From an uncultured Eubacteriales bacterium (GTDB lineage: Bacteria > Acidobacteriota > Aminicenantia > Aminicenantales > Aminicenantaceae), in contig CAZEQD010000002.1 of assembly GCA_964514305.1 (NCBI GenBank), positions 21,346 through 85,345 on the forward strand: a stretch of DNA of 64,000 nt, given 5' to 3'. The notes beneath the pieces are model-generated. The model had not been told where the DNA came from and ran no database searches. It saw nothing but the letters and a program-made list of their open reading frames with translations. A program made the position numbers and the translations under genes. Positions within the stretch are counted from its first letter, which is position 1. The number at the start of each line of letters is the position of its first letter. Shown piece after piece: positions 4,253-56,646 of this stretch.

Positions 4253-6796
4253 TTAATCCGGGTGAGATGAAGCCTGAGTTTCAGTTATTTTTTTGCTCCG
4301 GCCTAAGATTTTCTTCAGAAATTGACCGGTATAAGATTTCTTATTTGCAGCTACTTCTTCCGGAGTACCTTGGGCCACTATCCAGCCTCCTTTATCCCCT
4401 CCTTCTGGGCCGAGATCAATAATATAATCTGAATATTTAATAACTTCAAGATTATGTTCAATAATGATGACCGTATTGCCCAATTTTACCAGCTGACCAA
4501 GGACATCAAGGAGTTGACGAACATCATCAAAGTGAAGACCAGTAGTAGGCTCATCAAGGAGATACAAAGTCTGGCCAGTGTCTTTTCGACTGATCTCCTT
4601 GGTCAATTTAATCCTTTGGGCTTCCCCACCTGATAAGGTAGGGGCTGGCTGACCCAATCTTATATAACCTAAGCCTACCTTCTTTAATAACCCCAGCTTC
4701 CTTTTCAAGACTGGATGAGCTTTTAAATATTCAAAAGCTTCATCAACTGTCATGGCCAGATAATCAGCAATATTATTTCCTTTGTACTCAACTGCTAAAG
4801 TTTCTTTATTATAGCGCTTGCCCTGGCAGCGGTCACAGGTAACGTAGACATCAGGTAAAAAATGCATTTCAATTTTTTTGGCTCCAGCTCCTTGACATTC
4901 TTCACAGCGACCGCCGGGCAAGTTAAAGCTAAAGCGGCTGGGAGAGTAGCCCCTTAATCTTGCCTCTGGAGTCAGAGCAAAAAGCTGGCGTAAGGAGGTA
5001 AATAAGCCAGTGTAAGTAGCCGGATTGGAACGGGGAGTCCGTCCTATAGGTTTTTGGTCGACAGCAACTACCTTATTAATTTTATCTAAGCCTAAAATTT
5101 TTTTATGCCTTCCCGGTCTTTGTTTGGCTTTATAAAATAAATTGGCTAAGCTCCGGTAGACGATATCATAAATCAATGTGCTTTTTCCTGAACCAGAGAC
5201 CCCCGTCACTGCTGTCATTACTCCCAAAGGAATACGAACATCAATATTTTTTAAGTTGTGTTCTTGAGCTCCTTTGACAATCAACCAGTCTTTTGGCTTT
5301 TTTCGAGGAAAAGGTATGGGGATATATTTTTCTCCTTTTAGATATTGAGAAGTAAGGGAAGAGGATGATTGCAGCAGCCCTTTTAGATTACCTTCAGCTA
5401 CTTTATAGCCTCCTCCCTCTCCAGCTCCAGGGCCCAGATCAAGAATATAATCAGCAGAGCGTATAGTCTGTTCGTCATGTTCAACAACAATAATAGAATT
5501 CCCTTCATCCCTTATACTTCTAAGTAAAGAAATTAGCTTTCCATTATCTCGCTGGTGGAGCCCAATAGTCGGCTCATCTAAAACATAAAGTATCCCTCTT
5601 AGGCGAGCTCCAACTTGAGCAGCCAGCCGAACACGACGGGCCTCCCCTCCAGAAAGAGAGGCGGTTGTCCTGCTCAACTGCAGGTAAGACACTCCCAGCT
5701 CTACCATAATTTTAAGCCGAGAATTAATTTCTTTTAATATTCTAGAGACGATAAGTTCTTGACTGGAACTGAACTTTAAAGAACGCAGCTCAGTTAATAG
5801 GTCGCTGATTGGCAGCAGGCAGAAATCATAAATATTTTTGTTCCCTATTGTAACAGCCAAGCTTTCCTTTCTTAAGCGGCTTCCCCCACAGTAAGAACAA
5901 ACTTCATTGGTAAGTTCAATTTCCCCCCATTTATTTAAAACAGTCTCATAGCCTAAACCATGGCAGTGAGGACAAGCTCCATAAGGGCTGTTAAAGGAAA
6001 AACTCCTCGGCTCTAACTCTGGCAGGCTAAGTTCACAGTAAGGGCAAAGGAGGTTTAAAGAAAAATAATAATCCCTCTCTTTTTCATCAATAATCACTAA
6101 GTCCCCCTTGCCCATCTCCAAAGATAAGTCGACTGCTTCTTTGAGTCTTTTCCCTGAACCTGAAGTTATTTTTATCTCATCAATTAGGACATCTATGTCA
6201 TGCTTTTTTGTTCTTTCTAAAGAGAGGCTTTCCTCTATTTCCCTTATTCGGCCATCTACTCGAAAACGGACAAAGCCTCTTTTGCCCAATCTCTCAAAGA
6301 GAGCATGATATTCTCCTTTGCGGCCTTTAACTACGGGGGCTAGTATCTTTACTTTCTTGCCAGGATAAGTTTGGCCCACCCTTCTCACTATTTCTTCTTC
6401 AGTTTGAGATCTCACCTGGCGACCACAGCGAGGGCAATGAGGCACCCCTACCTTGGCAAAAAGAAGCCGCAATAAATCATAGATTTCAGTTGCAGTTCCC
6501 ACAGTAGAACGAGGATTTGATGAAATCGTCTTTTGCTCGATAGAAATAGAAGGAGAGAGACCTTCAATAGCTTCCACTTCAGGCTTTTCCAACTGTTCAA
6601 TGTACTGACGAGCGTAGGTAGAAAGGCATTCAATATACCTTCTCTGTCCTTCAGCGAATAAGGTGTCAAAAGCTAACGATGATTTGCCAGAGCCACTAGG
6701 GCCAGTAATGACAATGAATTTATTTCGGGGCAGGCTGAGATCAAGATTTTTCAGATTGTGTTGAGAAGCTTTCTTAATAATTATCTCTTTTAACAT
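4253..6796 (-). CDS. uvrA: Excinuclease ABC subunit A (UvrA), 847 aa, lacks the canonical insertion domain
   Basis: Two ABC ATPase modules (GPSGSGKSSLAFDTL and GVSGSGKSTLI), LSGGEA signatures, zinc fingers CPRCG / CPYC..CPHC / CEECQG..CDRCQGKRY. A UvrB-binding-like segment is present. About 95 aa between the second and third zinc modules appear missing compared with E. coli UvrA. Confidence 0.9.
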   Translation of the reverse strand: MLKEIIIKKASQHNLKNLDLSLPRNKFIVITGPSGSGKSSLAFDTLFAEGQRRYIECLSTYARQYIEQLEKPEVEAIEGLSPSISIEQKTISSNPRSTVGTATEIYDLLRLLFAKVGVPHCPRCGRQVRSQTEEEIVRRVGQTYPGKKVKILAPVVKGRKGEYHALFERLGKRGFVRFRVDGRIREIEESLSLERTKKHDIDVLIDEIKITSGSGKRLKEAVDLSLEMGKGDLVIIDEKERDYYFSLNLLCPYCELSLPELEPRSFSFNSPYGACPHCHGLGYETVLNKWGEIELTNEVCSYCGGSRLRKESLAVTIGNKNIYDFCLLPISDLLTELRSLKFSSSQELIVSRILKEINSRLKIMVELGVSYLQLSRTTASLSGGEARRVRLAAQVGARLRGILYVLDEPTIGLHQRDNGKLISLLRSIRDEGNSIIVVEHDEQTIRSADYILDLGPGAGEGGGYKVAEGNLKGLLQSSSSLTSQYLKGEKYIPIPFPRKKPKDWLIVKGAQEHNLKNIDVRIPLGVMTAVTGVSGSGKSTLIYDIVYRSLANLFYKAKQRPGRHKKILGLDKINKVVAVDQKPIGRTPRSNPATYTGLFTSLRQLFALTPEARLRGYSPSRFSFNLPGGRCEECQGAGAKKIEMHFLPDVYVTCDRCQGKRYNKETLAVEYKGNNIADYLAMTVDEAFEYLKAHPVLKRKLGLLKKVGLGYIRLGQPAPTLSGGEAQRIKLTKEISRKDTGQTLYLLDEPTTGLHFDDVRQLLDVLGQLVKLGNTVIIIEHNLEVIKYSDYIIDLGPEGGDKGGWIVAQGTPEEVAANKKSYTGQFLKKILGRSKKITETQASSHPD

Positions 6797-6904: not shown

Positions 6905-6975
6905 ACGTTGATAGCCTTCCATCCAAAGCCCACAGCGGTGGGTGGGGTCTTGGGCAAGGATGGATGGGCATCAAC
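6905..6975 (+). repeat. Truncated copy (core only) of the dispersed ~175-bp structured repeat family
   Basis: ccatccaaagcccacagcggtgggtggggtcttgggcaaggatgg matches the core of copies at 7108, 20183, 35711 and 56434 (ccatccgagcctatagtggtgggtggggggtcttggcgaagatgg). The 3' half is absent. Confidence 0.6.
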
Positions 6976-7107
6976 ATTATTTCTAGTAACTTCTTTAACT
7001 ATTGGGCATCAGGTAAATAAGGATGCATCCATTAGCATTATAAGCATTCTTACTATGAAACCATTTTTTCAGTTGACCAATATCCATGCTCATAATAATA
7101 TAAGACC

Positions 7108-7288
7108 GGAAGCATTTCCAAAACCGTGATAGCTAATAATGAATAAAGTTGTATCTAGGGGCAGCAACTTTCCACTATCCAAACCCATAGCGGTAGGTTA
7201 GGGGCCTTGGCCAGTACGGAGGGAAATCGCTGCCACATATCATTTCCTGGTGAAAACTTTCAATCATCACCGAAATGGAAATGCTTAC
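7108..7288 (+). repeat. Copy A of the dispersed ~175-bp element with nested inverted repeats (possible MITE or structured ncRNA)
   Basis: Outer inverted repeat ggaagcatttccaaaaccg ... ccgaaatggaaatgcttac. Inner stem gcagcaactttcc / ggaaatcgctgcc. Conserved core ccatagcggt...ggccttgg. Aligned by eye to the three other copies. Confidence 0.7.
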
Positions 7289-7313
7289 TAGAAGAAAAAA
7301 TTGGTTGAAGTAA

Positions 7314-9662
7314 ATGATCAATAGAGAAGAAAACCTTCTTAAGTCCTTAAAGATTCTCCAAAAAACTGGAGCTGAAACAGGTTCAATCCGTATTATTAAA
7401 CACATCCCTCCTCAACCAGGAGAATATAGAGACTATCCGCCTGATCTTCATCCGGCCTTGGTCAAAGCTCTTAAAGAAAAGGACTTCTCTAAGCTTTATT
7501 ACCATCAATACCTTTCCTGGCAGCTTCTCCGTCAACGAAAAAATATTGTGGTTGTCACCCCTACTGCTTCGGGAAAAACCCTCTGCTATAATTTGCCAGT
7601 GCTTAATGCTATTCTTGAAAATCCTTCAGCCCGGGCTTTATATCTTTTCCCGACTAAAGCTCTTTCCCAAGATCAGCGAGCAGAGTTGGATGAAATCATC
7701 GCCCTTCTTCCTGAAGAAATAAGAATTTTTACCTACGATGGCGATACACCTCAAGATGCCAGAAAGGCCATCCGGACCAGGGGACATATCATCCTTACCA
7801 ACCCGGATATGCTTCATACAGGTATTCTGCCTCACCACACCAAATGGATAAAATTGTTTGAAAACTTAAAATTCATAGTCATTGACGAACTTCATAACTA
7901 CCGTGGTATCTTTGGCAGTCATTTGGCTAATGTTCTTAGAAGGTTAAAGAGAATTGCTCAATTTTACGGAAGTAAACCCCAATTTATTCTCTCTACAGCC
8001 ACCATCGCCAATCCTTTAGAAATATCTGAAAAAATGATAGAGGAACCAGTTTCAGTAGTTAATCGCAGCGGAGCCCCCAAAGGAGAAAAATATTTCATTT
8101 TCTATAATCCACCTGTTGTTAACAAATTCTTAGGAATTCGGCGTTCTTATATCAATGAATCACGCTGGGTAGCTTCAATTTTTTTAAAAAACCATCTTCA
8201 GACCATTGTTTTTGCCCAAAGCCGCCTCATGACTGAAGTTCTGGTAACTTATCTTAAAGAAGATATCGAAACCAGCGTTGGTCAAGAAGGGCTTATCCGC
8301 GGTTATAGAGGAGGGTATCTTCCTTTAAAACGCCGGCAGATAGAAAAAGAGTTAAGAGAAGGCAAGACAAGAGGAATTGTCTCGACCAATGCTTTAGAAC
8401 TGGGAATTGATATTGGTAGTTTAGATGTGGCTGTTTTAGCCGGATATCCAGGGACAATCTCCAGCACCTGGCAAAGAGCCGGTCGGGCTGGCCGACAAGC
8501 AGGAAAATCGGCTGCTATTTTGGTGGCCTCCAGCTCCCCCCTTGACCAATTCATTATCAACCATCCCCAGTATTTCTTCTCCAAAAACCCAGAAAAAGCT
8601 CTGATAAATCCCGATAATCTTTCTATTCTCATCAGTCATATAGAATGTGCCACTTTTGAACTTCCTTTTATGGATGGTGAAAAATTTGGCAAGGTAGACA
8701 TCACTGAAATCCTTAAATTCTTAGAGGAAGAAAATTTAGTTCACCACTCCCAGAATAAATGGTTCTGGACTTCAGATGCTTATCCAGCCGATGGCGTAAG
8801 CCTGCGCAGTATAAGCTCTGACAATTTTGTGGTGATCGATACTTCCCAAAAACCTCAAGCCATCGCTGAGGTTGATTTTTCCTCAGCCTTAACCACTCTT
8901 CATCCCAAAGCTATTTATATTTGCGAGGGTGAACAATATTTTGTCGAAAAACTCGATTACCAGCAAAGAAAAGCTTATGTCAAAAAGACAGATGTCAATT
9001 ATTTCACCGAGGCCATAGATTATACTAAAATCAAAATCCTTGATATTTTTACCCAAAAGAAATTAGCTCAAGCTCATATCGCCCACGGAGAAGTACATGT
9101 GGCTACTCAAATAGTAGGCTTTAAAAAAATCAAATTCTACACCATGGAAAATTTAGGCGCCGGAGATTTAAGTCTCCCCCAAAACGAGATGCATACTACT
9201 GCTTACTGGCTAAGCATCCCTGCCTCTATTTTTCAAAGTCTATCCTACAGTTCTGAACAAAAAATAAATGGCCTTTTTGGCTTGGCTTATCTTCTTCATC
9301 ATGTCTCACCTCTGTTTCTAATGTGTGATCTTCATGATATTGGTGTCTCTATAGGAGATAACGTAACAGGTATGTCTGTCCCCCCCCGAGATATGCTTTC
9401 TAAAATTGGAAGAAGAGAAGCTCAACTCCTAAGAGAGGCTAAATTTGAGCCCAATATTTTCATCTATGACAATTATCCAGGGGGAATAGGGCTTAGCCCT
9501 TCTCTTTTTGAACTCCAAGAAAAACTTTTCAAACACTGTAAAGAAACAATTGAAGCCTGCCCTTGTCAAGAAGGCTGTCCCTCGTGCGTCGGACCTTCCA
9601 AAGCCCTTGGCACTTTAGCCAAGCAGGTCGCTTTAGAGATTCTGACAAGGTTAATTGCCTAA
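7314..9662 (+). CDS. DEAD/DEAH-box helicase with C-terminal DUF1998-like 4-Cys zinc domain (MrfA/YprA-like; also resembles DISARM DrmA architecture)
   Basis: Walker A TPTASGKT, DEAH-type VIDELH, motif VI QRAGRAGR. C-terminal CPCQEGCPSCV cluster is characteristic of DUF1998/MZB domains. Confidence 0.75.
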   Translation: MINREENLLKSLKILQKTGAETGSIRIIKHIPPQPGEYRDYPPDLHPALVKALKEKDFSKLYYHQYLSWQLLRQRKNIVVVTPTASGKTLCYNLPVLNAILENPSARALYLFPTKALSQDQRAELDEIIALLPEEIRIFTYDGDTPQDARKAIRTRGHIILTNPDMLHTGILPHHTKWIKLFENLKFIVIDELHNYRGIFGSHLANVLRRLKRIAQFYGSKPQFILSTATIANPLEISEKMIEEPVSVVNRSGAPKGEKYFIFYNPPVVNKFLGIRRSYINESRWVASIFLKNHLQTIVFAQSRLMTEVLVTYLKEDIETSVGQEGLIRGYRGGYLPLKRRQIEKELREGKTRGIVSTNALELGIDIGSLDVAVLAGYPGTISSTWQRAGRAGRQAGKSAAILVASSSPLDQFIINHPQYFFSKNPEKALINPDNLSILISHIECATFELPFMDGEKFGKVDITEILKFLEEENLVHHSQNKWFWTSDAYPADGVSLRSISSDNFVVIDTSQKPQAIAEVDFSSALTTLHPKAIYICEGEQYFVEKLDYQQRKAYVKKTDVNYFTEAIDYTKIKILDIFTQKKLAQAHIAHGEVHVATQIVGFKKIKFYTMENLGAGDLSLPQNEMHTTAYWLSIPASIFQSLSYSSEQKINGLFGLAYLLHHVSPLFLMCDLHDIGVSIGDNVTGMSVPPRDMLSKIGRREAQLLREAKFEPNIFIYDNYPGGIGLSPSLFELQEKLFKHCKETIEACPCQEGCPSCVGPSKALGTLAKQVALEILTRLIA

Positions 9663-9694: not shown

Positions 9695-10351
9695 TTATGA
9701 TTTAATAGAATTAATTTTAGCTAACTGCTTTTCTTCGCCCATGATGATCAATATATCACTATCCTTGATGACAAAATCGGCACGCGGAATAAAAGTTGTT
9801 TTTTCCGGAATCAACTCTTTAATAGCGATTACCTGGATGCCATATTTGTTTCTTAAGTCCAATTCTTTAAGGCTCTTGCCCATGAATTTTTCGGGAGGGG
9901 CTATCTCTTGAATCCCAAGCCCTGAAATAAGAGGGAGATATTCCAGGATATTAGGATTACTTAATTTAAGGGCCGTCTTTAGAGCCATATCCTTCTCTGG
10001 ATAAATTACCTCTGTGGCCCCAACCGCTTCTAAAATTTTAGCATGATCTTCGGTGAGAGCTTTAGCTATTATCCTTTTAACTCCCATTTCATGTAAGTAT
10101 AAAACTGTAAGAATAGAAGATTCCATCTCTGGTCCAGAGCTGACCACAACCACATCCATCTCTCCTACCCCTAAGGCCTGAAGATTTTCTTTAACTGTGG
10201 CATCCATATTAACGGCATGAGAAACAAATGTTTTTACTTCTTCTACCTTTTCTTTATCCTTGTCTACAGCTACTACCTCATTCCCTTTTTCATAAAGAGT
10301 TTTGGCCACATGAGCACCAAAACTTCCAAGACCAATAACTGCAAATTTCAT
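9695..10351 (-). CDS. trkA: Potassium uptake protein TrkA/KtrA (NAD-binding RCK domain)
   Basis: N-terminal Rossmann motif MKFAVIGLGSFGAHVAKTL; ~218 aa with RCK N and C domains; adjacent to trkH/ktrB. Confidence 0.85.
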   Translation of the reverse strand: MKFAVIGLGSFGAHVAKTLYEKGNEVVAVDKDKEKVEEVKTFVSHAVNMDATVKENLQALGVGEMDVVVVSSGPEMESSILTVLYLHEMGVKRIIAKALTEDHAKILEAVGATEVIYPEKDMALKTALKLSNPNILEYLPLISGLGIQEIAPPEKFMGKSLKELDLRNKYGIQVIAIKELIPEKTTFIPRADFVIKDSDILIIMGEEKQLAKINSIKS

Positions 10352-10371: not shown

Positions 10372-11766
10372 TTAACCTATCATAACAGTTTCTTCAGCAT
10401 ATTCAAATCTTCCGTATGATTTTTCTCTACTAAAAGCATATAAAAGGGTTAAAGGGCCGATGCGACCGATATACATGGTAAAGATAATAATAATTTTTCC
10501 AAAATCATTCAATCTTGGAGTTATACCTAAAGAAAGACCTACGGTTCCAAAGGCAGAAAAAACTTCAAATAAGATCTCCTTCATTGCCAATCCAGGTTGT
10601 GTCAGGAAAAGCAAAAAGGAAGAAAGGAAAATAATTAATATAGCTAAAGTTACCACCGTAAAGGCTTTAGTCACCAGTTCAACAGGGATGGTGCGGTAAA
10701 AGACATTGACCGATTCTCTGGCCGTAATTTTAGATTTCAGATAAGCAAAAATAACGCCTATAGTACAGGTTTTAACTCCCCCGCCTGTTGATCCAGGAGA
10801 AGCCCCGATAAACATCAACATGATTAAAAGAAAGATTATGGGTAAACTTAAAAGATTTAAATTCAGAGTATTGAAGCCGGCGGTACGGGGGGTGACTATT
10901 TGGAAAAAAGATGAAAAAACTTTATCTTTAAGGGAAAAACCAGCTAAAGCCTGATTCCATTCAACTGCCAGAAAAATGAGGGAGGGAAGTAAAATAAGAA
11001 CTGCAGTAATTATCATAACCAACTCTGTATGAAGAGAAACCTTGATTTTCTTCCTTTTTATGAGCCTAAAAAAAATATTTCTTACTTCATCCAGCACCAG
11101 GAATCCAACTCCTCCTAAAATAATTAACAACATAATAGTCAGGTTTATCCAGATGTCTCCTCTAAAAGAAAGAAAACTGCCACTAAAAAGAGAAAAACCG
11201 GCATTGCAAAAAGCAGAAACTGAATGAAATACAGCTTTACAGATAGATTCTAACCACGAATATTCTCTCAACCAGCGGAAAAAAAGAGAGAAAGCCCCAA
11301 TCCCTTCGAGAATCAGGGTATAAAGAAAAACCCGAGTTATAATAGATTTTATATCTCGGGGGGCAGTGTGGTGAAAATCCTGTTGAACAATTATCCTATC
11401 TTTTATGGAAATTCTTTTGCCGGCAGCCAGGAGAATTAGAGTAGAAAAAGTCATTATGCCTAATCCTCCCAACTGGATAAGAACTAAAATTATTATCTGT
11501 CCAATTGGAGTAAAAAAAGTGGCCGTATCCTGGACAATAAGGCCAGTTACACATACCCCAGAAGTAGATGTAAAAAGAGCATCTACAAAAGATATATGAC
11601 CAGACCGGGTGGCTAGGGGAAGAAGGAGAAGCCCGCTCCCCGCTAAAATAGTAATAATAAAGCTAATAGCCAAGAACTGAGCAGGCTGAAATCTTTTTTC
11701 GCCTTTAATTTTCTTCCTCCTTGCCAAACAAATATCAAATCTATTACTTAAGCTAATTTTTGTCAA
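10372..11766 (-). CDS. trkH: Potassium transporter TrkH/KtrB family membrane protein
   Basis: Polytopic membrane protein with repeated GFxxxGLS selectivity-like segments (GVCVTGL, AGFSLFSG, AGFNTLN, FGTVGLSLG) typical of the Trk/Ktr/HKT family; adjacent to trkA. Confidence 0.8.
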   Translation of the reverse strand: MTKISLSNRFDICLARRKKIKGEKRFQPAQFLAISFIITILAGSGLLLLPLATRSGHISFVDALFTSTSGVCVTGLIVQDTATFFTPIGQIIILVLIQLGGLGIMTFSTLILLAAGKRISIKDRIIVQQDFHHTAPRDIKSIITRVFLYTLILEGIGAFSLFFRWLREYSWLESICKAVFHSVSAFCNAGFSLFSGSFLSFRGDIWINLTIMLLIILGGVGFLVLDEVRNIFFRLIKRKKIKVSLHTELVMIITAVLILLPSLIFLAVEWNQALAGFSLKDKVFSSFFQIVTPRTAGFNTLNLNLLSLPIIFLLIMLMFIGASPGSTGGGVKTCTIGVIFAYLKSKITARESVNVFYRTIPVELVTKAFTVVTLAILIIFLSSFLLFLTQPGLAMKEILFEVFSAFGTVGLSLGITPRLNDFGKIIIIFTMYIGRIGPLTLLYAFSREKSYGRFEYAEETVMIG

Positions 11767-17627: not shown

Positions 17628-19385
17628 TTAGGCCATAAGGAAAGCTTTGGGATATTTAACCAGCACTTTCTCTATAATATACTCTTCAATTTCTTGAGAA
17701 GTAGGTAAGATTATCGCCTTGCGCACAATGTTTTTTACAACTTTATATTCAACTGAGCGTAAGGCTCTTTTTACTCTAGGAATAAAAATAGGATTCATAC
17801 TATACTGGCGCAAGCCAAAGCCAAGTAAGACTATGGCTGAGAGAGGGTCAGCGGCCATCTCGCCGCAAACAGTTACCTCTTTTCCTGCCTTTCGGGCTCC
17901 CTCAATAATAAATTTTATAAGTTTTAAAATAGAAGGATGAAGCGGTTTATAAAGGTAGGAAACTAACTCATTAGAACGGTCAACCGCCAAATAATACTGG
18001 ATTAAATCATTGGTGCCAATACTCAAAAAGTCAACCTCTTGGGCCAAAACATTAGACAAAGCCGCTGCCGCTGGTACTTCGATCATGATTCCCAAGGGAA
18101 TATTCTCATCAAATTTCTCTCGTTTTATTGTCAGCTCCTGTTTTACCTCCTGGAAAATGTGTTTGATCTCAGCTAATTCTTCAATCTCAGTCACCATTGG
18201 AATTAAAATTCTTATGTTTTTCAGGAAACTTGCCCTGAGAATTGCTCTCAGTTGAATTTTAAACAAATCTTTGTTGCGGAGAGAAAATCTTATGGCTCTC
18301 AATCCTAAAGCAGGATTGGGCTCTTTTTCAATTTTTAATTGAGGCAAACTCTTTTCACCGCCTAAATCTAAAGTCCGGATGAAAACTGGTTGAGGATAGG
18401 CTTCTTTAGCAATCCGGGAATAAATAGAAAAGTGATCATCTTCTTTGGGCACCGTATCACTTTGAAGATAAATAAATTCAGAACGAAAAAGTCCTATGCC
18501 CTCCGCTCCTAAAGAAAAAGCCAGATTCACTTCTTCAGGAAGTTCGATGTTGGCTAAAGGAAAAAACTTAAAACTATCTAAGGTAAGGGATCTTAACTTG
18601 GCTGTTTTTTTAAGTTCATGACGGTAAATATCATACTTCTCTTTTTTGCTGGAAAACTCCTTTCTGATGGCTCGAGGTGGATTAATTATTACCTCACCGT
18701 CAGTTCCGTCGACAATCAAAAAATCTCCATCTTCTACAACTTTGGTAATATTTCCTAAGCCAACCACAGCCGGGATATTTAAGGAGCGAGCCAGAATAGC
18801 CGTATGAGAAGTCTGCCCACCCATATCAAGGGCTATTCCCAAAGTATTTCCTCGGCTCAGCTTGGAGGCTGCCTCTGATGGTAAAAGTTCATGAGCCACT
18901 AAAATTTTTTCTGTATCATCTTCTCTTTCTTCAGGAGCAGAAGCCTCCAGGTTATTATAAATCTTACTAAGCACGTCAGATACATCTGATCTCCTTTGTC
19001 TGAAATACTCATCAGTTATCGATTCAAAAAGTTTTTGGTATTTATTATGAACTTGAGATATAGCCCATTCTGATCTGGTCTTTTCTTGCTTAATTATTCT
19101 CTGCAGTTCTGACAATAATGATTTATCTTCAAGAATGAGAAGGTGCGCATCAAAAATAAAAGAGTGCTCCTTTCCTATTTTCTTCTTTACTTGTTCTTTT
19201 ATTTTAATTAGTTGTTCTTTTGTCCGGTTCAGAGCATTCCTCAACCTTTTTATCTCCTTATCCACCTGTAATAAGGGAAGGCTTTCTTTTCGGGCAGTAA
19301 AGACAATTCTGCCCAAGAGCCGAACTTTACCCATAGCAATCCCAGGAGAGACTCCAATTCCTCTTAGCCTAAAATAATCCATCAC
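17628..19385 (-). CDS. ptsI: Phosphoenolpyruvate-protein phosphotransferase (PTS Enzyme I)
   Basis: N-terminal GIGVSPGIAMGKV, phosphohistidine region GGQTSHTAILARSLNIPAVVG, C-terminal PEP-utilising domain IGTNDLIQY. Confidence 0.9.
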   Translation of the reverse strand: MMDYFRLRGIGVSPGIAMGKVRLLGRIVFTARKESLPLLQVDKEIKRLRNALNRTKEQLIKIKEQVKKKIGKEHSFIFDAHLLILEDKSLLSELQRIIKQEKTRSEWAISQVHNKYQKLFESITDEYFRQRRSDVSDVLSKIYNNLEASAPEEREDDTEKILVAHELLPSEAASKLSRGNTLGIALDMGGQTSHTAILARSLNIPAVVGLGNITKVVEDGDFLIVDGTDGEVIINPPRAIRKEFSSKKEKYDIYRHELKKTAKLRSLTLDSFKFFPLANIELPEEVNLAFSLGAEGIGLFRSEFIYLQSDTVPKEDDHFSIYSRIAKEAYPQPVFIRTLDLGGEKSLPQLKIEKEPNPALGLRAIRFSLRNKDLFKIQLRAILRASFLKNIRILIPMVTEIEELAEIKHIFQEVKQELTIKREKFDENIPLGIMIEVPAAAALSNVLAQEVDFLSIGTNDLIQYYLAVDRSNELVSYLYKPLHPSILKLIKFIIEGARKAGKEVTVCGEMAADPLSAIVLLGFGLRQYSMNPIFIPRVKRALRSVEYKVVKNIVRKAIILPTSQEIEEYIIEKVLVKYPKAFLMA

Positions 19386-19651
19386 TCTTTCTCTTGGAAT
19401 TTATCATCAATTAAAGCTATTAAGGCCTGCAGGGCATTTTTTTCATCCTGCCCGGAGATTCTTAGGATTATCTCTGAACCTTGAGTAGCCGCTAAGGTCA
19501 AAATGCCCAAGATGCTTTTGCCATCAATTTCATTGCCATCTTTTTCTATCCTGACACTTGAACTAAAACGATTGGCCAGGTTAACAAACTTTACGGCAGC
19601 TCTAGCATGCAGCCCAAGCTTATTTTTTATGGTAATTTTCTTCTCAACCAT
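19382..19651 (-). CDS. ptsH: Phosphocarrier protein HPr/NPr
   Basis: GLHARAAVKFV active-site His15 motif and SILGILTLAATQGSEI regulatory Ser46 region; 89 aa. Confidence 0.9.
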   Translation of the reverse strand: MVEKKITIKNKLGLHARAAVKFVNLANRFSSSVRIEKDGNEIDGKSILGILTLAATQGSEIILRISGQDEKNALQALIALIDDKFQEKE

Positions 19652-19668
19652 TGAAAAGAAAGAAATTA

Positions 19669-20070
19669 TTACTTACTACTTAAAAGGGCGCTGGCTAAAT
19701 GTATATTTTTCTTTCCTTGTTCCACTACTTTCCTGGCTACTTCTTTCAAATTATTGCTCCTTTGAAGAGACACAAATTTAATGAGCATGGGCAGATTTAC
19801 ACCAGTGATTATTTCTACTTTATTATTTTTCATAAAGCTAAAACTCAAATTGGAAGGAGTCCCTCCAAACATGTCTGTAAAGATAACAACTCCATTTTTC
19901 TGATCTACCCTTTTCAAACTCTGATTTATCTTCTTTTTTGACTCCTCAACATCGTCATACCAGCCAATGGAAATAGCTTCAATATTGACTACTTCTCCCA
20001 GAATAATATTTAGAGCATTAAGCAGTTCCTCGGCCAGCTTTCCGTGAGAAACTATAATACCACCTATCAT
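19669..20070 (-). CDS. PTS EIIA component, mannose/fructose family (type 4)
   Basis: MIGGIIVSHGKLAEEL N-terminal active-site His motif and FTDMFGGTPSN; 133 aa. Confidence 0.8.
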   Translation of the reverse strand: MIGGIIVSHGKLAEELLNALNIILGEVVNIEAISIGWYDDVEESKKKINQSLKRVDQKNGVVIFTDMFGGTPSNLSFSFMKNNKVEIITGVNLPMLIKFVSLQRSNNLKEVARKVVEQGKKNIHLASALLSSK

Positions 20071-20182
20071 CTCAGCTTCTATTCTTTTTTAAATTATTCA
20101 ATCTTGATTTATTTTATCACTTCTCCTATCTAAACTTAAGTTTTTTATTTTTCCAGTAAGTACTTGTCCCAAATCATCCCAA

Positions 20183-20349
20183 AAGTATTTCCAAAACCGT
20201 TATAGCTAATAATGAATTTGTATCTAGAAGCAGCGACCTTCGGCCATCCGAGCCTATAGTGAGAGGTCTTGGTGAGGATGGGAGAAATCGCTGCCAAATT
20301 TCATTTCTTGGTGAGGAATTTCACTCATCACGGTTTTAAGGAAGCTTAC
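20183..20349 (+). repeat. Copy B of the dispersed ~175-bp structured repeat
   Basis: tatttccaaaaccgttatagctaataatgaa...gcagcgaccttcggccatccgagcctatagtgagaggtcttggtgaggatgggagaaatcgctgcc...catcacggttttaaggaagcttac. It lies between the convergently ended EIIA(Man) and rapZ genes, which are on the opposite strand. Confidence 0.7.
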
Positions 20350-20425
20350 ATTTTTCCAAGAAGGGAAAGTTCCTTTGAATAATAAAATTAGCTCTTATTC
20401 AACCAGGAATTAATATTTAAAGCTC

Positions 20426-21295
20426 TTATTTATAGATATCCCGATGATACACTCTAATTTTATATCCCTTCTCGGTTAAATGATCCTTCAGTTCTTCAGC
20501 TATGACTACAGCCCTGTGCTTGCCTCCCGTACAACCAATGGAAACATTAAGATAGCTCTTTCCTTCTTCAACAAAATTAGGCATTAAATAATCAATAAAA
20601 TTAAAGAGTTTAGTTACAAAAGCTTTTGTTTCAGGCTTTTCCAGAACATAATCTCTGACATTTTTACTCTTACCGGTCTTATCTCTCAGTTGATCAATAT
20701 AAAAAGGATTGGGCAGAAATCTTGTATCAAAAACTAAATCAGAATCAACTGGAAGGCCGTATTTGTAACCAAAACTAACAACTAAAACTTGGAGTTTAAC
20801 TTCTCTTCTTACCAATAATCTGGTCGTCAGCATTTTTCTCAACTGGATAATACTGGTAGCTGAAGTATCAATAACATCATCAGCTAATTTTTTTATCCTT
20901 TCTAACCTTTTCCTTTCTAAAGCTATATTTTCCAAAACTGATTTTCTCTGGGCTAAGGGATGCGGACGTCTTGTCTCTTTAAATCGCTTAACAAGCGTTT
21001 CATCAGAGGCCTCAAGAAAAATTAATCTGGGTGATATTTTTTTCCTTATTCTTTTTAGCACTTTTGGAAATTCAGAAGTAAAACCGGCCTCTCTAATATC
21101 TACGACTAAGGCTACCTTGCTAATCTCAACTTCTTTTCTCATCCAGAGATTGACAAAATCAGGAATCAATTTGGCCGGCAAATTGTCCATGCAATAATAA
21201 CCCAAATCTTCAAGAAAACGGCTGACAATTGTTTTACCTGAACCAGATAATCCAGTTATAATCAGAAACCGGTCATTTCTCATTTCATTCTTCAT
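20426..21295 (-). CDS. rapZ: RNase adapter protein RapZ (P-loop ATPase YhbJ/YvcJ family)
   Basis: FLIITGLSGSGKTIVSRFLEDLGYYCMDNLP N-terminal Walker A region diagnostic of the UPF0042/RapZ family; 289 aa. Confidence 0.85.
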   Translation of the reverse strand: MKNEMRNDRFLIITGLSGSGKTIVSRFLEDLGYYCMDNLPAKLIPDFVNLWMRKEVEISKVALVVDIREAGFTSEFPKVLKRIRKKISPRLIFLEASDETLVKRFKETRRPHPLAQRKSVLENIALERKRLERIKKLADDVIDTSATSIIQLRKMLTTRLLVRREVKLQVLVVSFGYKYGLPVDSDLVFDTRFLPNPFYIDQLRDKTGKSKNVRDYVLEKPETKAFVTKLFNFIDYLMPNFVEEGKSYLNVSIGCTGGKHRAVVIAEELKDHLTEKGYKIRVYHRDIYK

Positions 21296-21299
21296 CTTA

Positions 21300-21857
21300 T
21301 TAGCGAGACGAAAGAACTCTATTTAGCTTTTTAGCTATTTCTTGAGGAGCAAAGTAACCTTTTTTTCTAAGGATATGGACTTTACAAGCTACTTCAATCA
21401 GAGTAGCAATATTCCTTCCTGGAGCCACTGGAATATTGATTTGAGACACTTTCTGGCCTAAAAGTTCACCTTCCTCAGGAAACTCAACGCCCAGCCGGTC
21501 ATATTCTTTGCCTTTTTTCCACTTCTTAAGGTTAATAATTAAGCTGAGCTCAGCTTGGGCAGAAACCGCTTTAGGACCAAATATTTTTTTTATATTAATT
21601 ATTCCTAATCCCCTAATTTCCATGAAATAGCGGCTGAGGCTGGGCGAGCTGCCCACTAATTTGCCTGCCCTTGTTCTCCTTAATTCTGTGACATCATCTG
21701 AGATAAAGCGGTGCCCCCTGCTAATGAGCTCTAAGGCACTTTCACTCTTGCCTATGCCGCTATCTCCTCTGATCAGAACACCGAGACCAAAAACTTTAAG
21801 TAATCCGCCAGAAATTGTTATTCGTTTAGCAGGGGTTTTATCCTGCCCGCTACTCAT
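21300..21857 (-). CDS. hprK: HPr kinase/phosphorylase, short form (C-terminal catalytic domain only)
   Basis: P-loop GVLIRGDSGIGKSESALELISRGHRFISDD. At 185 aa it is far shorter than the ~310-aa full-length enzyme. Confidence 0.75.
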   Translation of the reverse strand: MSSGQDKTPAKRITISGGLLKVFGLGVLIRGDSGIGKSESALELISRGHRFISDDVTELRRTRAGKLVGSSPSLSRYFMEIRGLGIINIKKIFGPKAVSAQAELSLIINLKKWKKGKEYDRLGVEFPEEGELLGQKVSQINIPVAPGRNIATLIEVACKVHILRKKGYFAPQEIAKKLNRVLSSR

Positions 21858-22320
21858 TTAACTTTTCTTCTTCCTTTTGAATAATCTCCAGAATTGAGCT
21901 TATGCTTCTGGCCTCAAGTATTTTTTTGAGCAATGAATTTGATTTGCGGACAAGATGGGCAATGGCCGCTAATATTTGAAGATTCAAGCTAGGATTTTCA
22001 GGAGATGAAACAACCAGGAAAAAAATATGAGAAGGTTTGCCATCCAAAGAATAAAAATTAACTCCTTTCTTAGAAATAGCCAGGAGGACAATCGGATTTT
22101 TTACTCCCTTCATTTTGCAATGAGGAATAGCCACTCCTTGGCCGATAGCTGTACTTCCCAAGTTTTCCCTCTGGATAAGTTTCTCACATAATTCTTTATC
22201 TTTAGTAATCTTGTTCCTTTTTTTCAAAAAATCAACCATCTCTTTCAGGACACCTTCTCTATCCTGATATTCCAGTTCGGGAATGATCATATCCTGAGGT
22301 AATAAATTATGAATTTTCAA
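21850..22320 (-). CDS. ptsN: PTS EIIA(Ntr), nitrogen-regulatory IIA type 2
   Basis: GSTAIGQGVAIPHCK active-site His motif of the EIIA type-2 (PtsN) family. Located in the rpoN operon. Confidence 0.85.
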   Translation of the reverse strand: MKIHNLLPQDMIIPELEYQDREGVLKEMVDFLKKRNKITKDKELCEKLIQRENLGSTAIGQGVAIPHCKMKGVKNPIVLLAISKKGVNFYSLDGKPSHIFFLVVSSPENPSLNLQILAAIAHLVRKSNSLLKKILEARSISSILEIIQKEEEKLNE

Positions 22321-22338
22321 GGCAACCTCTCACTTTCT

Positions 22339-22860
22339 CTATTCAGGCTCTATAAAGCCCAAATTACCATCTTTTCGCCGATAAATAAATACCCATTTTT
22401 CTGAACCTGTTTTCCGAAAAGCAAAAACATCTTTTTGGCTCAAATTAAATTGCAGAATAGCTTCTTCAAGAGACATGGGTTTAAGAGAATAATCATTGCT
22501 TTTAATTATTCTCGGAGTTGGCTCTTCTTTTTCCGTTAATGTAAACAATTCTTTTTCTCTATTTTTTCTTCTTTTTCTTTCTCTTAGCTTTTCTATTTCC
22601 TTTTTTATTCTCTTTTCCAGATTATCAAAAGCTGCACCTAAAGCAAACATCATATCTTGGGTCTCTTCGGCTGCATTAATGCTTATTCTTCTACTTTTGA
22701 TGTTTATTTCAGCCTTATGGCGGTATTTTTCCACTGAAAGGATGATATCCGTTTCTATGGAAGAACCCAATATTTTTTCCAGGCCCTTTATTCTTCTTTG
22801 AGAGTACTTCCTAATATCGGGAGTAATTTGGGCATGACGGGCTGTAAAATTGATAATCAT
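22339..22860 (-). CDS. hpf: Ribosome hibernation promoting factor (long HPF; sigma-54 modulation protein)
   Basis: MIINFTARHAQITPDIRKY start typical of HPF/RaiA, with a C-terminal extension (long form). Start set at ATG 22860, overlapping the rpoN stop; the ORF track begins at 22878. Confidence 0.85.
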   Translation of the reverse strand: MIINFTARHAQITPDIRKYSQRRIKGLEKILGSSIETDIILSVEKYRHKAEINIKSRRISINAAEETQDMMFALGAAFDNLEKRIKKEIEKLRERKRRKNREKELFTLTEKEEPTPRIIKSNDYSLKPMSLEEAILQFNLSQKDVFAFRKTGSEKWVFIYRRKDGNLGFIEPE

Positions 22861-24311
22861 TTTCTCTCCTCCATCCAATACCTCTTTTTTCTCACATGAG
22901 AAGGGGGGATATTTAACTGCATTCTATACTTAGCCACTGTCCGTCGGGCAATTCTAAAGTTTTCTTTAGCTAAAATTTCACCTATTTCTATATCACTGAG
23001 AGGTCGTTTTTTATTCTCATGTTCAACCAGCTTTTTTATTTTTTCTTTGATTCTTAAGGATGATATCTCTTGGCCATAATCGCCCACCAGAGATTTATGA
23101 AAAAAATACTTAAGGGGAAAAACTCCTCGAGGGGTTAGCATATATTTATTAGCCACTACCCTGCCTACAGTTGATTCATGGACACCAATTTCTCGGGCTA
23201 ATTCCATTAAAGTCAAAGGTTTTATAAACTCGATTCCTTTCTCTATAAAATCTTTCTGTTTGTCAACGATATATTTGGCCACTTTATAAATGGTCTGATT
23301 CCGTTGATCTAAACTCCGCAAGAACCAAAAAGCTTTTTTCATCCTATCTTTTAGGAATTTATAAGTTTCAGGGCTGTCCTGGGAGGCCCTGGCCAAAAGG
23401 CTTTTGTAATAACTATTGATTCTTATTCGAGGTATCCCTTCATCATTCAAGGCTATTTTTAAGTCATTGCCTTCTTGGCTGACAATAATATCGGGAATTA
23501 CATAGAATGTTTTTTCCTGGCTGTATTTTCTGCCTGGATTCGGATCCAATCTCTTAATAACTTCAAGATGATATTTTAGAGAGGAAAAAGGGATATTCAA
23601 GATTTTAGCCAATTGAGCATAATCAGCCTTTTCCAAAAGATGGAGATGGTTTTCTACTATCTGGCGGCTCACTTCATCTTCAAGCTGAAGATAGTCCATT
23701 TGAGTTAAAAGGGCCTCTTTTAGTGACAGACTCCCTACTCCTACAGGATCAAATTTTTTAATTTTCTCTCTTACTTTATTCACTTTGGCCAGAGTAGATT
23801 TTGTCTCCTGAGCTACCTCTTCTTCGGAAATAGTTAAATAGCCATCTTCATTGATGTTGCCTATGATATAGCGGGCAATTTCCTTCTCTTTCCGATCAAA
23901 AAAAGTTAAATTGGCCTGCCAGTTTAGATGATCCCAAAGAGAAGGACTCTTAGATACTACATTCTCTAAAGGAGGGGCTTCTCTGTGTTCTAAAAAAAAA
24001 GACCTAAAACCGTTGTCAAAATATTCCTGAAAGTAAGCCTCAAAGTCTTCTTCTTCAACTTCCTTTGACTCCTTTTCCTCAGCTATTTCTTCCTGCGATT
24101 TGAGAGGAAGAGCTTCTTCATTCGTCTTTTCAGCTGTCTCATCTTCTACCTCCAGCATCGGATTCTGGGAAAGCTCTGCATCGATAATTTCTATGAGCTC
24201 CATATTAGTCAGAGGCAGGAGCTTGATTGCTTGTTGTAAAGCAGGGGCCAAGATTAACTTCTGAACCTGCCGCTGGTCTAAACGCTGTTTTAAGGCCATT
24301 TTTCTTCCCAA
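22857..24311 (-). CDS. rpoN: RNA polymerase sigma-54 factor
   Basis: C-terminal RpoN box ARRTVAKYR and HTH. Gln-rich N-terminus (LKQRLDQRQVQKLILAPALQQAIKLL). A start at 24299 (MALKQ...) is possible. Confidence 0.9.
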   Translation of the reverse strand: MGRKMALKQRLDQRQVQKLILAPALQQAIKLLPLTNMELIEIIDAELSQNPMLEVEDETAEKTNEEALPLKSQEEIAEEKESKEVEEEDFEAYFQEYFDNGFRSFFLEHREAPPLENVVSKSPSLWDHLNWQANLTFFDRKEKEIARYIIGNINEDGYLTISEEEVAQETKSTLAKVNKVREKIKKFDPVGVGSLSLKEALLTQMDYLQLEDEVSRQIVENHLHLLEKADYAQLAKILNIPFSSLKYHLEVIKRLDPNPGRKYSQEKTFYVIPDIIVSQEGNDLKIALNDEGIPRIRINSYYKSLLARASQDSPETYKFLKDRMKKAFWFLRSLDQRNQTIYKVAKYIVDKQKDFIEKGIEFIKPLTLMELAREIGVHESTVGRVVANKYMLTPRGVFPLKYFFHKSLVGDYGQEISSLRIKEKIKKLVEHENKKRPLSDIEIGEILAKENFRIARRTVAKYRMQLNIPPSHVRKKRYWMEERK

Positions 24312-35710: not shown

Positions 35711-35886
35711 GGAAGCCTTCCAAAACCGGGTTAGATAATAATGAAGTTGTATCCAAAAGCAGCGATTTTCTTCCATCTGAAGTCCATAGCGGTGAGTGGC
35801 AGGATGTTGGCGAAGATGGGGGAAATTGCGACCACATATCATTTCTTAGTGAAACCTTCTAATCATCCCGGATATGGAAATGCTTG
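35711..35886 (+). repeat. Copy C of the dispersed ~175-bp structured repeat
   Basis: ggaagccttccaaaaccgggttagataataatgaag...gcagcgattttcttccatctgaagtccatagcggtgagtgg...ggaaattgcgacc...catcccggatatggaaatgcttgc. It sits upstream of rpsT. Confidence 0.7.
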
Positions 35887-35904
35887 CTCCTATATAAATA
35901 TAAG

Positions 35905-54800: not shown

Positions 54801-55667
54801 ATGAGATCAAAATTTTTAAGAGCCGCTATTTTAGCTTTAATTCCTTTAATGTTTTTTTCCTGCCAGAGGCAGGTCAAGGTTAAAGGAGTTTCTCTTCAGG
54901 TTAATTTTTCAGATCAGACTTTAACTGATAACCTCATGACTGATATTCAATATAAATGGAAAACCAGCCATGATTTCTTGAAATTGGATCGTGATTACAA
55001 AATATTTGTTCATTTCTGGCATAAAAATAACATGCTTTTTCAAGATGACCACTTTCCAGCCATTCCTACCTCAAGCTGGGAAGCTGATCAGGAATATTCA
55101 TATACCAGAAGAATTTACATACCATCTTTTATTGATGAATATGACCCTGAGTTTAAGGGAGAAGAAAGCCTGAGGTTATCTATTGGCTTTTATTCTCCCT
55201 ATGATAGGACTGGAAAATCAGCCCTTGAAGTCTCTAACAAAAAACTGAAGGTATTACCAGCTCCCCCTGATACGCCAGAAATTATCTACGAAGATGGTTG
55301 GTATAATCAAGAGAATAACCCTCACTCATTCCTCAAGCAATGGAGATGGACAGCCAAGGAAGCCCGGTGTTTGATTGACAACCCTCATCGCGACGCTCTT
55401 TTAGTCATAAAAGGAGGTATAAATCCTCAAGCTCTCAAAGAGCAAAAAGTAATTTTTAAAATCAATAACCTTATTCTGGATGAATTTATACCTAAAACAG
55501 ACCACTTTAAAAAATCATACAACATAAAAAAGGAAATGCTTGGCGAAAATGACGAATTTTATCTCACAATTGCTACAGATAAAACTTTTATACCGGCCAA
55601 AGTCCTGCCAAATTCCCAAGATACAAGAGAACTCGGCGTCCAGATTTCCTTTATCTACTTCAGGTAA
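54801..55667 (+). CDS. Hypothetical lipoprotein
   Basis: Signal peptide with lipobox (LMFFSCQ). I recognise no catalytic motif; 288 aa. Confidence 0.4.
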   Translation: MRSKFLRAAILALIPLMFFSCQRQVKVKGVSLQVNFSDQTLTDNLMTDIQYKWKTSHDFLKLDRDYKIFVHFWHKNNMLFQDDHFPAIPTSSWEADQEYSYTRRIYIPSFIDEYDPEFKGEESLRLSIGFYSPYDRTGKSALEVSNKKLKVLPAPPDTPEIIYEDGWYNQENNPHSFLKQWRWTAKEARCLIDNPHRDALLVIKGGINPQALKEQKVIFKINNLILDEFIPKTDHFKKSYNIKKEMLGENDEFYLTIATDKTFIPAKVLPNSQDTRELGVQISFIYFR

Positions 55668-55696: not shown

Positions 55697-56227
55697 TTAT
55701 TTTTGGCTTTTAAGCTGGTTCAATTGTTGTTTGATTCTCTTCTCTTCTTCTTTGGTTGTCTTTAATCTCTGATTTGTCTGTTTAATACGCTTCTGAATAT
55801 TTACCTTAGGAATTGAATCATCCAGGCTGTAAAACTCCTGCCAGAGAGCATTGATTTTAAGCATCAGCAATTGGATATATTCTTTTGTCCGTTGCAGCTT
55901 CTCTTTAAGTTCTAAAGCAGAAATCTGATAATCCATTTTATCGGCCTCCATTTGGCTTTGAGGCTTACTTTTTACTGGCCTTATATTCTTCATCGGAGTT
56001 TTAATTTTCTTGGGTGATTCTTTAAGGACGATGGGTGGAGACACGACCACAGCCAGACGATTCTTGTGCTTAGCTAAATCAGCGTTGGTAATTATTATAC
56101 TCTTTTTTCTCTTAATCTTAGCTCTTCTCTCTTTCTCTTTCTGGGCAAGTTCCACCAGATTTTGAGCCAAAATTAGAGAAGTGGCTAAAATAAACATTAG
56201 AGACCAGGAAATTATTCTTTTGATCAT
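55697..56227 (-). CDS. Hypothetical secreted coiled-coil protein
   Basis: N-terminal signal/TM, then a Lys/Glu/Gln-rich coiled coil (EEEKRIKQQLNQLKSQK); low-complexity. Confidence 0.35.
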   Translation of the reverse strand: MIKRIISWSLMFILATSLILAQNLVELAQKEKERRAKIKRKKSIIITNADLAKHKNRLAVVVSPPIVLKESPKKIKTPMKNIRPVKSKPQSQMEADKMDYQISALELKEKLQRTKEYIQLLMLKINALWQEFYSLDDSIPKVNIQKRIKQTNQRLKTTKEEEKRIKQQLNQLKSQK

Positions 56228-56292
56228 TACTTTTATTAATATTATGCTACACTATGCCTTGCCAACTGTCAATTCCTGCGTTGACGCTTATG

Positions 56293-56420
56293 GGGTCAGA
56301 CCTTCATAAGTTTCATAACTTTAATTTTTACAATAATTCTAATAGCTTTTGTCCCTTACAAACCCACGAAATATATCAATAGAGAAGCATAATTTATGAA
56401 ACTTATGAAGGTCTGACCCC
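56293..56420. repeat. Perfect 27-bp inverted repeat separated by a 74-bp spacer (long hairpin/cruciform)
   Basis: ggggtcagaccttcataagtttcataa (56293-56319) and its exact reverse complement ttatgaaacttatgaaggtctgacccc (56394-56420). The pair is flanked by ...attcctgcg... on both sides (56270 and 56438). Confidence 0.8.
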
Positions 56421-56433
56421 CACAGCCTATATA

Positions 56434-56646
56434 GCATTCCTGCGGTAAACATCACCAAAACCACGATAACCAATAATGAAGAAGGTCACACTTATAGGCA
56501 GCAATTTTCCTCCATCCGAGCCTATAGTGGTGGGTGGGGGGTCTTGGCGAAGATGGAGGGAAATCGCTGCCAAAGTTCATTTCTTTATGGGGAATTTCAC
56601 TCCTCACGGTTCTAGGGATACTTTCATTCCTGCCTCAAACAAAAAA
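56434..56646 (+). repeat. Copy D of the dispersed ~175-bp structured repeat
   Basis: agcattcc...caccaaaaccacgataaccaataatgaagaag...gcagcaattttcctccatccgagcctatagtggtgggtggggggtcttggcgaagatggagggaaatcgctgcc...ctcctcacggttctagg. It lies upstream of lpxK. Confidence 0.7.

Follow-up and report, generated by a model that had tools for sequence, protein, structure and literature searches.

The stretch of DNA analysed here, called the window throughout, comprises 64 kb of a Candidatus Aminicenantes metagenome-assembled genome (MAG). In its first part lies a helicase gene of the yprA family, mrfA, which is transcribed divergently from uvrA on one side and converges with trkA on the other. We read this gene as the Aminicenantes orthologue of the helicase MrfA (YprA), placed in the repair branch and not in the defence branch of its family, with the partner gene mrfB lost from the locus, and we give this reading a probability of roughly 80%. 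The coding sequence and the domains of its product are located in window coordinates as follows.

7314..9662, + strand: mrfA (yprA-family) coding sequence, 782 residues plus stop codon (9660-9662), ATG start
7503..8012, + strand: RecA1/DEAD domain, residues 64-233 (Pfam PF00270, 2.6e-31), with K88 of motif I and D191-E192 of motif II (DELH)
8187..8495, + strand: RecA2/Helicase_C domain, residues 292-394 (Pfam PF00271, 6e-17), with R304 and R340, equivalent to MrfA R298 and R333, and motif VI, QRAGRAGR
8604..8813, + strand: Hrq1/MrfA-type winged-helix domain, residues 431-500 (Pfam PF22982, WHD_HRQ1, 7.2e-10, 40.2 bits against a cutoff of 27)
9282..9590, + strand: MZB domain (MrfA Zn-binding, formerly DUF1998), residues 657-759 (Pfam PF09369, 1.7e-17, profile positions 1-80 of 80, 64.3 bits against a cutoff of 24.2)
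9558..9587, + strand: four-Cys zinc site CPCQEGCPSC, C749/C751/C755/C758, aligned to MrfA C718/C720/C724/C727

The original prediction had described a 782-residue protein at 7314-9662 with helicase motifs and a C-terminal zinc module, and both the open reading frame (ORF) and the Pfam matches bear this out. TPTASGKT, VIDELH, QRAGRAGR and CPCQEGCPSCV are all found in the translation, each of the four Pfam domains scores well over its curated cutoff, and the zinc module, suspected to be of the DUF1998 type, matches PF09369 (MZB) over the whole profile.

Against all PDB sequences, the best phmmer match of the window protein was Bacillus subtilis YprA/MrfA (6ZNP), with an E value of 1.9e-241 and 806 bits. 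Residues 30-678 and 713-779 of the query are collinear with residues 26-672 and 684-749 of the 6ZNP chain, at 50.2% identity over 711 aligned residues, and the NTR-RecA1-RecA2-WH-OB-CON-MZB architecture of the MrfA crystal structure is recovered at the sequence level. Functional residues of MrfA, compiled from PMC7797055 and 10.1101/426304, were mapped onto the window protein after correction for the two-residue tag of the PDB chain. The motif I lysine K82 corresponds to K88 and the motif II pair D185/E186 to D191/E192; T134, G137 and R144 of motif Ib are conserved, as are the residues of motifs IV and IVa. In the winged-helix (WH) domain, the contact residues N428 and E442 are N435 and E449 of the window protein, and the MZB hinge residues Y690 and I694 are Y721 and I725. 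Nearly all functionally relevant residues are thus retained, the sole changes being S222 to T, F483 to Y and N666 to H; the first is a conservative replacement that turns motif III into T228-A-T. Four closely spaced Zn-binding cysteines are a family criterion of Burby and Simmons (10.1101/426304). These cysteines are invariant in a 22-sequence alignment (A4), and CxCxxGCxxC occurs in 84/84 homologues in which the C-terminus is present. Given the collinear 6ZNP match, the four Pfam domains and the conserved motif, winged-helix, hinge and zinc residues, we name the window protein an MrfA orthologue.

The family is large, with 3,304 clusters at 50% identity that reach E <= 1e-30. All of the nearest homologues (77-91% identity) belong to MAGs of Candidatus Aminicenantes; one of them, P0014, is UCC38925.1, encoded on CP070825.1 (4.43 Mb, GCA_020344415.1). 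UER53415.1, the 'YprA only' representative of Bell et al., was considered as the Aminicenantes orthologue and rejected, P0014 being UCC38925.1.

The protein was also compared with characterized relatives. B. subtilis MrfA (PDB 6ZNP/6ZNQ/6ZNS) has the same seven-domain order along its full length, with the catalytic, DNA-contact, hinge and zinc residues conserved. It differs in belonging to Bacillota instead of Aminicenantes, in having a downstream mrfB, whereas the window gene is monocistronic and convergent with trkA, in the residues of motif III and position 666 named above, and in the length of the variable loop between the MCD and IFIYD motifs of the MZB domain (about 19 residues, compared to 42 in the window protein). 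Mycobacterium smegmatis SftH (TIGR03817, DECH_helic) also joins a DExH helicase to a four-Cys DUF1998 domain at the C-terminus; biochemical work has established it as a monomer with 3'->5' DNA helicase activity, and it occurs on its own, with no MrfB (PMC7797055; 10.1101/2025.09.15.676423). The window protein scores 623.8 bits against the TIGR03817 cutoff of 874.1, its best stretch covering profile positions 2-658 of 742, and resembles MrfA of the Bacillus type far more closely. Saccharomyces cerevisiae Hrq1, RecQ4-like, is of the same family and shares the winged helix matched by PF22982; it contributes to mitomycin C tolerance (PMC7797055; 10.1101/426304). Hrq1 is eukaryotic, oligomeric and more distant than MrfA, with B. 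subtilis MrfA about 32% identical to it (10.1101/426304).

The surroundings of the gene were then compared within the window and across relatives. Downstream of mrfA, on the - strand, lie trkA (9695-10351) and trkH (10372-11766), followed by tolQ-tolR-tolA-tolB-pal-ybgF-ssb. A Pfam scan of the window ORFs of at least 100 residues, excluding any contained within a longer one, returned housekeeping functions only, apart from two ORFs without a match. The genes identified include those for a sigma and anti-sigma factor, ricT, holB, uvrA, trkAH, the Tol-Pal genes, ssb, a cluster of rpoN with nitrogen phosphotransferase system (PTS-Ntr) genes, lptABC, recJ, ftsY, rib genes, murJ, holA, leuS, enolase, comEC and lpxK. 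Among these main window ORFs, Pfam found no RNase_H_2/MrfB, phospholipase D (PLD), DUF1998-only protein or methyltransferase, and in the flanks of relatives, where all neighbours are housekeeping genes, there was no DrmB, DrmC, PLD, methylase or MrfB either. The earlier observation that uvrA and trkAH flank the helicase, with no DrmB, DrmC, methylase or MrfB-like partner nearby, therefore stands, on Pfam and on the search for MrfB in the window described below. The order sigE-antiS-ricT-holB-uvrA, then divergent mrfA, then trkAH or a resistance-nodulation-division (RND) pump, then tolQRAB-pal-ybgF-ssb is kept in the Aminicenantes loci that extend far enough. All Aminicenantes loci with 75-91% MrfA identity retain this core block, and MrfA is among its most conserved proteins. 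One locus of this group, L007, is titled 'Eubacteriales'; with full Aminicenantes synteny and a position inside the Aminicenantes clade, it is probably from a mislabelled MAG.

These data bear directly on whether the helicase is instead a phage-defence component, be it DISARM DrmA-like, Druantia/ARMADA-like or part of a new minimal system. The YprA-family fold and the DUF1998/MZB domain are common to the window protein, DrmA/DrmB, DruE and DpdJ, and the PADLOC models BrxHI, DruE, SngC and DrmA match it with E values of 1e-20 to 1e-44. These PADLOC matches, however, span only the generic RecA1/RecA2 core (about residues 45-410 for DrmA, DruE and BrxH) and not the C-terminal module. The DrmA profiles, which the original prediction had named among the searches to run, lend the defence reading no support: the PADLOC DrmA models give 52-71 bits, confined to the helicase core, and the NCBIfam DISARM DrmA model NF038326 gives 22.4 bits against a cutoff of 999. 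DISARM DrmA/DrmB share a homologous SF2 (superfamily 2) core and CON/DUF1998 module with the window protein (10.1101/2025.09.15.676423), but DISARM encodes the helicase and the DUF1998 protein in two separate genes, which sit in defence islands together with methyltransferases and the PLD nuclease DrmC. In the window, the OB-CON-DUF1998 module is fused within a single 782-residue protein and no separate DrmB is found, and a defence island with DrmC (PLD) and a DrmMI/DrmMII methyltransferase is absent from the window and from the flanks of relatives. The protein lacks both a BrxA-like insertion and additional zinc modules, and its length of 782 residues equals that of MrfA.

Gene order and phylogeny also speak against a defence role: synteny is fixed and of core-genome type, and the MrfA tree tracks organismal phylogeny. 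As the same core block is present in every sufficiently long Aminicenantes locus without MrfB, DrmB/C, a PLD nuclease or a methylase, the defence reading fails; within Aminicenantes, orthologues stand uniformly beside uvrA with no variable partners, the very pattern that was to count against it. DISARM, Druantia and other defence systems were ruled out on the core-limited PADLOC and NCBIfam matches and the missing partner genes, and we regard a defence function as effectively refuted, with next to no chance of being right. The proposal of a stand-alone repair helicase of the MrfA/YprA type, as opposed to DISARM, is borne out by the collinearity with B. subtilis MrfA, the MZB match and a core synteny without defence genes. 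In Table S1 of Bell et al. (10.1101/2025.09.15.676423), some Candidatus Aminicenantes genomes are listed with ARMADA Type I helicases, which are YprA-like proteins of the defence branch; no ARMADA Type I helicase-like protein was found in the window.

We turned to the missing partner. The MrfAB system is defined by two genes: the second, for the DEDDh exonuclease MrfB (tetratricopeptide repeats added to a PF13482 core), immediately follows the helicase gene or is fused to it; the window locus has neither arrangement. A reference MrfB from a Neobacillus locus was verified by its matches to PDB 8UN9 (E 7e-106) and Pfam PF13482, and a hidden Markov model (HMM) built from five Bacillales MrfBs was run on stop-to-stop ORFs of at least 60 residues in the window and 84 related loci. 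It gave no match in the 64-kb window, nor in the seven Aminicenantes loci that have at least 1.3 kb of downstream sequence. The related loci include 80 from named genomes, a non-exhaustive set: out of the first 600 pattern hits in a single genome-collection scan, those with the best tblastn matches were taken. In 57/80 of them, mrfB lies on the same strand directly 3' of the helicase gene, mostly overlapping it or a few bases away; these genomes include Vicinamibacterales, Terriglobales, Rokubacteria, Bacillota and Proteobacteria. An adjacent mrfB is also absent in a Bryobacterales-type clade and a few scattered taxa. In one case, an Acidobacteria MAG (L018:9943-13551, + strand), the MrfB HMM matches within the stop-free frame of the helicase, suggesting an MrfA-MrfB fusion; such fusions are mentioned by Bell et al. 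(10.1101/2025.09.15.676423).

A neighbour-joining (NJ) tree built from 85 helicases agrees for the most part with organismal phylogeny. When rooted with eight distant family members as outgroup, it places the Aminicenantes clade within MrfB-linked lineages. Over 100 bootstrap replicates, the Aminicenantes were monophyletic in 100/100, at least one MrfB-positive ingroup lineage branched earlier in 100/100, and the sister group was predominantly MrfB-positive in 99/100. Because the Aminicenantes clade is nested inside MrfB-linked lineages in this rooted and bootstrapped tree, the solo mrfA of Aminicenantes is, by parsimony, a derived state that arose by secondary loss of the adjacent partner. 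The 42-residue insertion in the MZB loop was considered as a signature of MrfB-less proteins and rejected, the loop ranging from 18 to 59 residues across Acidobacteriota regardless of MrfB. Two further loci, L017 (titled 'Acidimicrobiia') and L067 ('Bifidobacteriaceae'), group inside Vicinamibacterales-type Acidobacteriota and probably derive from mislabelled MAGs.

Loss from the locus could also mean that the operon was split while a canonical MrfB, encoded at an unlinked genomic site, still partners MrfA. The ancestral state was MrfB-linked, and the residues of MrfA are as strongly conserved as in MrfB-linked homologues, including the winged-helix domain proposed to dock MrfB; the genomic coverage, moreover, is 64 kb of the window genome and +/-10 kb of relatives. 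The empty window and the seven informative Aminicenantes loci speak against a split, as does the tight coupling suggested by overlapping or abutting mrfA and mrfB in nearly all 57 MrfB-positive genomes, a pair that would rarely survive unlinked. Many MrfA-only genomes are also already recognized in the literature (10.1101/426304; 10.1101/2025.09.15.676423). On balance we hold a surviving unlinked partner to be rather unlikely, though worth keeping in mind.

A solo MrfA is as such an already known configuration. MrfA is more widespread than MrfB (10.1101/426304), and a 'YprA only' repair branch has been recognized (10.1101/2025.09.15.676423), made up of the same repair-type YprA with a fused OB-CON-DUF1998 module and no nuclease gene. 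The Aminicenantes case is an orthologue of a characterized family in a little-studied phylum. It is set apart from the 'YprA only' branch in that the window protein groups with MrfB-linked helicases, so that mrfB appears to have been lost recently, inside the MrfAB branch.

The gene on the other side of the spacer is unusual in its own right.

4253..6796, - strand: uvrA, 847 residues, divergent from mrfA and without the insertion (DNA-binding) domain (NCBIfam NF001503, 1255 bits against a cutoff of 1147)

The window UvrA passes the NCBIfam UvrA equivalog cutoff and has the UvrB-interaction domain, while Pfam UvrA_DNA-bind is unmatched. When it is aligned to PDB 9GXK, chain residues 305-413 are passed over; these form the insertion domain, a region that normally gives a large share of the DNA contacts of UvrA (PMC7835731). 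UvrA of relatives is equally short (838-847 residues), so the deletion of the insertion domain, about 110 residues, is clade-wide. The divergent uvrA-mrfA arrangement was found in the window and in 6/6 Aminicenantes loci with upstream sequence. In the other 76 genome-scan loci, about 12 of which have too little upstream sequence, uvrA appeared within the fetched flanks once (L024, 4.6 kb downstream). The spacers between the two genes measure 31-200 bp in relatives; insertions in these loci have always spared the uvrA-mrfA interval, falling between holB and uvrA (L005 and L007) or on the far side of mrfA, downstream (L002). Beyond AT-rich promoter-like hexamers, no operator or SOS-box-like motif was common to the uvrA-mrfA spacers of five relatives.

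From this pairing one might suppose that Aminicenantes MrfA has been rewired to UvrABC, sharing a divergent promoter region with an unusual UvrA and substituting for or assisting a step of nucleotide excision repair. Retention of the pair in all six informative loci and the window despite changes on both outer sides would fit this, as would spacers as short as 31-58 bp and the uniform lack of the insertion-domain residues from the UvrA of the clade. The adjacency is limited to one clade, however, and may be plain inherited synteny; B. subtilis MrfAB repairs mitomycin C damage independently of UvrABC (10.1101/426304), and the spacers hold no shared operator-like motif. The Bryobacterales-type clade, which lacks MrfB as well, shows no uvrA adjacency, and the lone nearby uvrA (L024) is canonical, encoding 940 residues. 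As evidence of a functional link the adjacency is circumstantial, fitting co-regulation and inherited synteny equally, and we consider such rewiring improbable. The more specific idea that the fixed divergent MrfA and insertion-domain-less UvrA form a hybrid excision-repair module, in which MrfA would supply DNA handling lost with the truncated UvrA or the missing MrfB, is in our view a long shot of much the same order.

At 517 bp, the uvrA-mrfA spacer of the window is unusually long because it holds two repeat insertions that are absent from a relative with 91% identity (L003). The original prediction had noted one and a half copies of a structured repeat upstream of the helicase gene, and nhmmer resolves these into one full and one partial copy. 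The features of the spacer and the remaining copies of the repeat in the window are as follows.

7073..7101, + strand: putative sigma-70-type mrfA promoter, TTGACC-17-TAATAT, from a consensus scan
~7108..7299, + strand: repeat copy 1, full, between the putative promoter and the mrfA ATG (nhmmer 7113-7295, 188 bits)
6916..7033, + strand: repeat, partial 5'-truncated copy (nhmmer model positions 61-180, E 6e-8)
20187..20360, + strand: repeat copy 2, between the EIIA-Man gene and rapZ (171 bits)
35717..35896, + strand: repeat copy 3, between murJ and holA (170 bits)
56450..56634, + strand: repeat copy 4, upstream of lpxK (190 bits)

All four full copies and the partial one lie on the + strand; the full copies are about 175-195 bp long and 65-83% identical. 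They carry imperfect terminal inverted repeats of 19-21 bp (AAGCATTYCCAAAACCG...). These are clear in copy 1 (16/21) and in a copy from a metagenomic locus (L124), with 16-18 matches over 19-21 positions, but weaker in copies 2 and 3 and undetected in copy 4. That metagenomic copy (L124:4310-4491, - strand) was the one genuine member among 51 loci returned by a metagenome-wide scan for the repeat motif, the other 50 proving to be chance matches by nhmmer. Copy 1 folds into a long central hairpin with a minimum free energy of -52.8 kcal/mol (z = -2.8 relative to shuffled sequence). No conserved ORF was found in the repeat, no transposase in the window by Pfam, and comparison with the empty site of the 91%-identical relative showed no clean target-site duplication. 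Small ORFs in the spacer were considered as a hidden partner of MrfA and rejected, as they lie within inserted repeat DNA or are unconserved. The promoter hexamers occur at the aligned position in L003, and the TTGACC...TAATAT pair recurs in L005.

Placed in sense orientation between the putative promoter and the start codon, with a fold more stable than that of shuffled sequence, the full copy could be taken for a leader or riboswitch-like RNA that regulates mrfA in cis, or for the gene of a small RNA controlling it. Its distribution speaks against such a role: the repeat is missing at the mrfA spacer of relatives with 77-91% identical MrfA, L003, L001 and L002 having no full copy where the sequences align, and it is absent from 62 kb of the syntenic loci of close relatives. 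The other copies have unrelated genes as neighbours, two of them running antisense to the operon beside them. The terminal inverted repeats also argue against an RNA, and the opposite strand folds nearly equally well. In the consensus fold of 49 pairs, compensatory changes were seen in only 4/49; many of the pairs are disrupted, and covariation contributes unfavourably. No Rfam family was matched at the gathering score or even at E <= 1, and no tRNA or tmRNA was detected, so the repeat was rejected as a known RNA. We judge control of mrfA by the repeat to be very unlikely. The repeat is best described as a lineage-restricted element of about 185 bp resembling a miniature inverted-repeat transposable element (MITE), an insertion that is not part of the helicase system, since the same spacer occurs without it in the 91%-identical relative. 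Both spacer copies are window-specific insertions that appear to be recent and peculiar to this genome; if the conserved promoter is used, they would at most add a structured leader of about 190 nucleotides to mrfA.

Directly upstream of copy 4, a near-perfect inverted repeat was observed at 56292-56420, with 30-nucleotide arms that are 97% complementary and 69 nucleotides apart. It falls in the spacer between an unannotated ORF (55697-56227, - strand) and lpxK.

By homology to its characterized orthologue, the window MrfA would act as a monomeric, ATP-driven 3'->5' SF2 DNA helicase. B. subtilis MrfA translocates on single-stranded DNA in this way, with closure of a canopy and a 'skipping-rope' linker (PMC7797055), and its ATPase motifs and Cys cluster are required in vivo (PMC7797055; 10.1101/426304). 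In the window protein, an OB-CON-MZB 'canopy' hinged on the zinc-binding MZB domain would likewise close over single-stranded DNA during translocation. Most repair-branch lineages appear to co-transcribe the helicase with the DEDDh exonuclease MrfB; in Aminicenantes, the loss of mrfB from the locus would have left a monocistronic, strongly conserved core mrfA divergent from uvrA. A likely role is the unwinding of damaged or structured DNA in excision-type repair, while the strand might be removed by a nuclease from another locus, be it an MrfB encoded at an unlinked site or a general exonuclease. Aminicenantes MrfA might serve as a constitutive DNA-repair helicase.

Several points weigh against a repair orthologue with a lost partner, or against parts of that picture. 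The mitomycin C specificity of B. subtilis MrfAB does not transfer even to its Pseudomonas aeruginosa homologues (10.1101/426304). The absence of mrfB is a statement about 64 kb here and +/-10 kb in relatives rather than about whole genomes. The tree behind the inferred loss is a distance-based NJ tree on the best 80 tblastn matches among the first 600 pattern hits, and what is said of the promoter and the 5'-untranslated region comes entirely from consensus matches.

Other content of the window touches none of these subjects. Two ORFs had no Pfam match at E <= 1e-3, one at 54801-55667 (+ strand, 288 residues) and one at 55697-56227 (- strand, 176 residues); they are flanked by a gene for a BNR/sortilin-repeat protein and the lpxK operon. 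An intact rpoN-hpf-ptsN-hprK-rapZ series followed by the EIIA-Man, HPr and ptsI genes (17628-24311, - strand) forms a regulatory cluster of the nitrogen-PTS type, which is ordinary content.

The importance of the finding lies mostly in annotation: a gene product labelled "DEAD/DEAH box helicase" in Aminicenantes MAGs can be named as the MrfA orthologue, and the window helicase is dropped as a candidate for a defence system. Its mildly unusual aspects are only two, the fixed pairing with an insertion-domain-less UvrA and the MITE-like insertions in the promoter-proximal spacer, and of all its features the pairing is the only one that might repay experimental follow-up. The locus also offers a clean case of decay of the MrfAB operon to a solo MrfA inside a single phylum, in the Aminicenantes and in the Bryobacterales-type clade without an adjacent mrfB, which could be of use in working out the role of MrfA where MrfB is missing.

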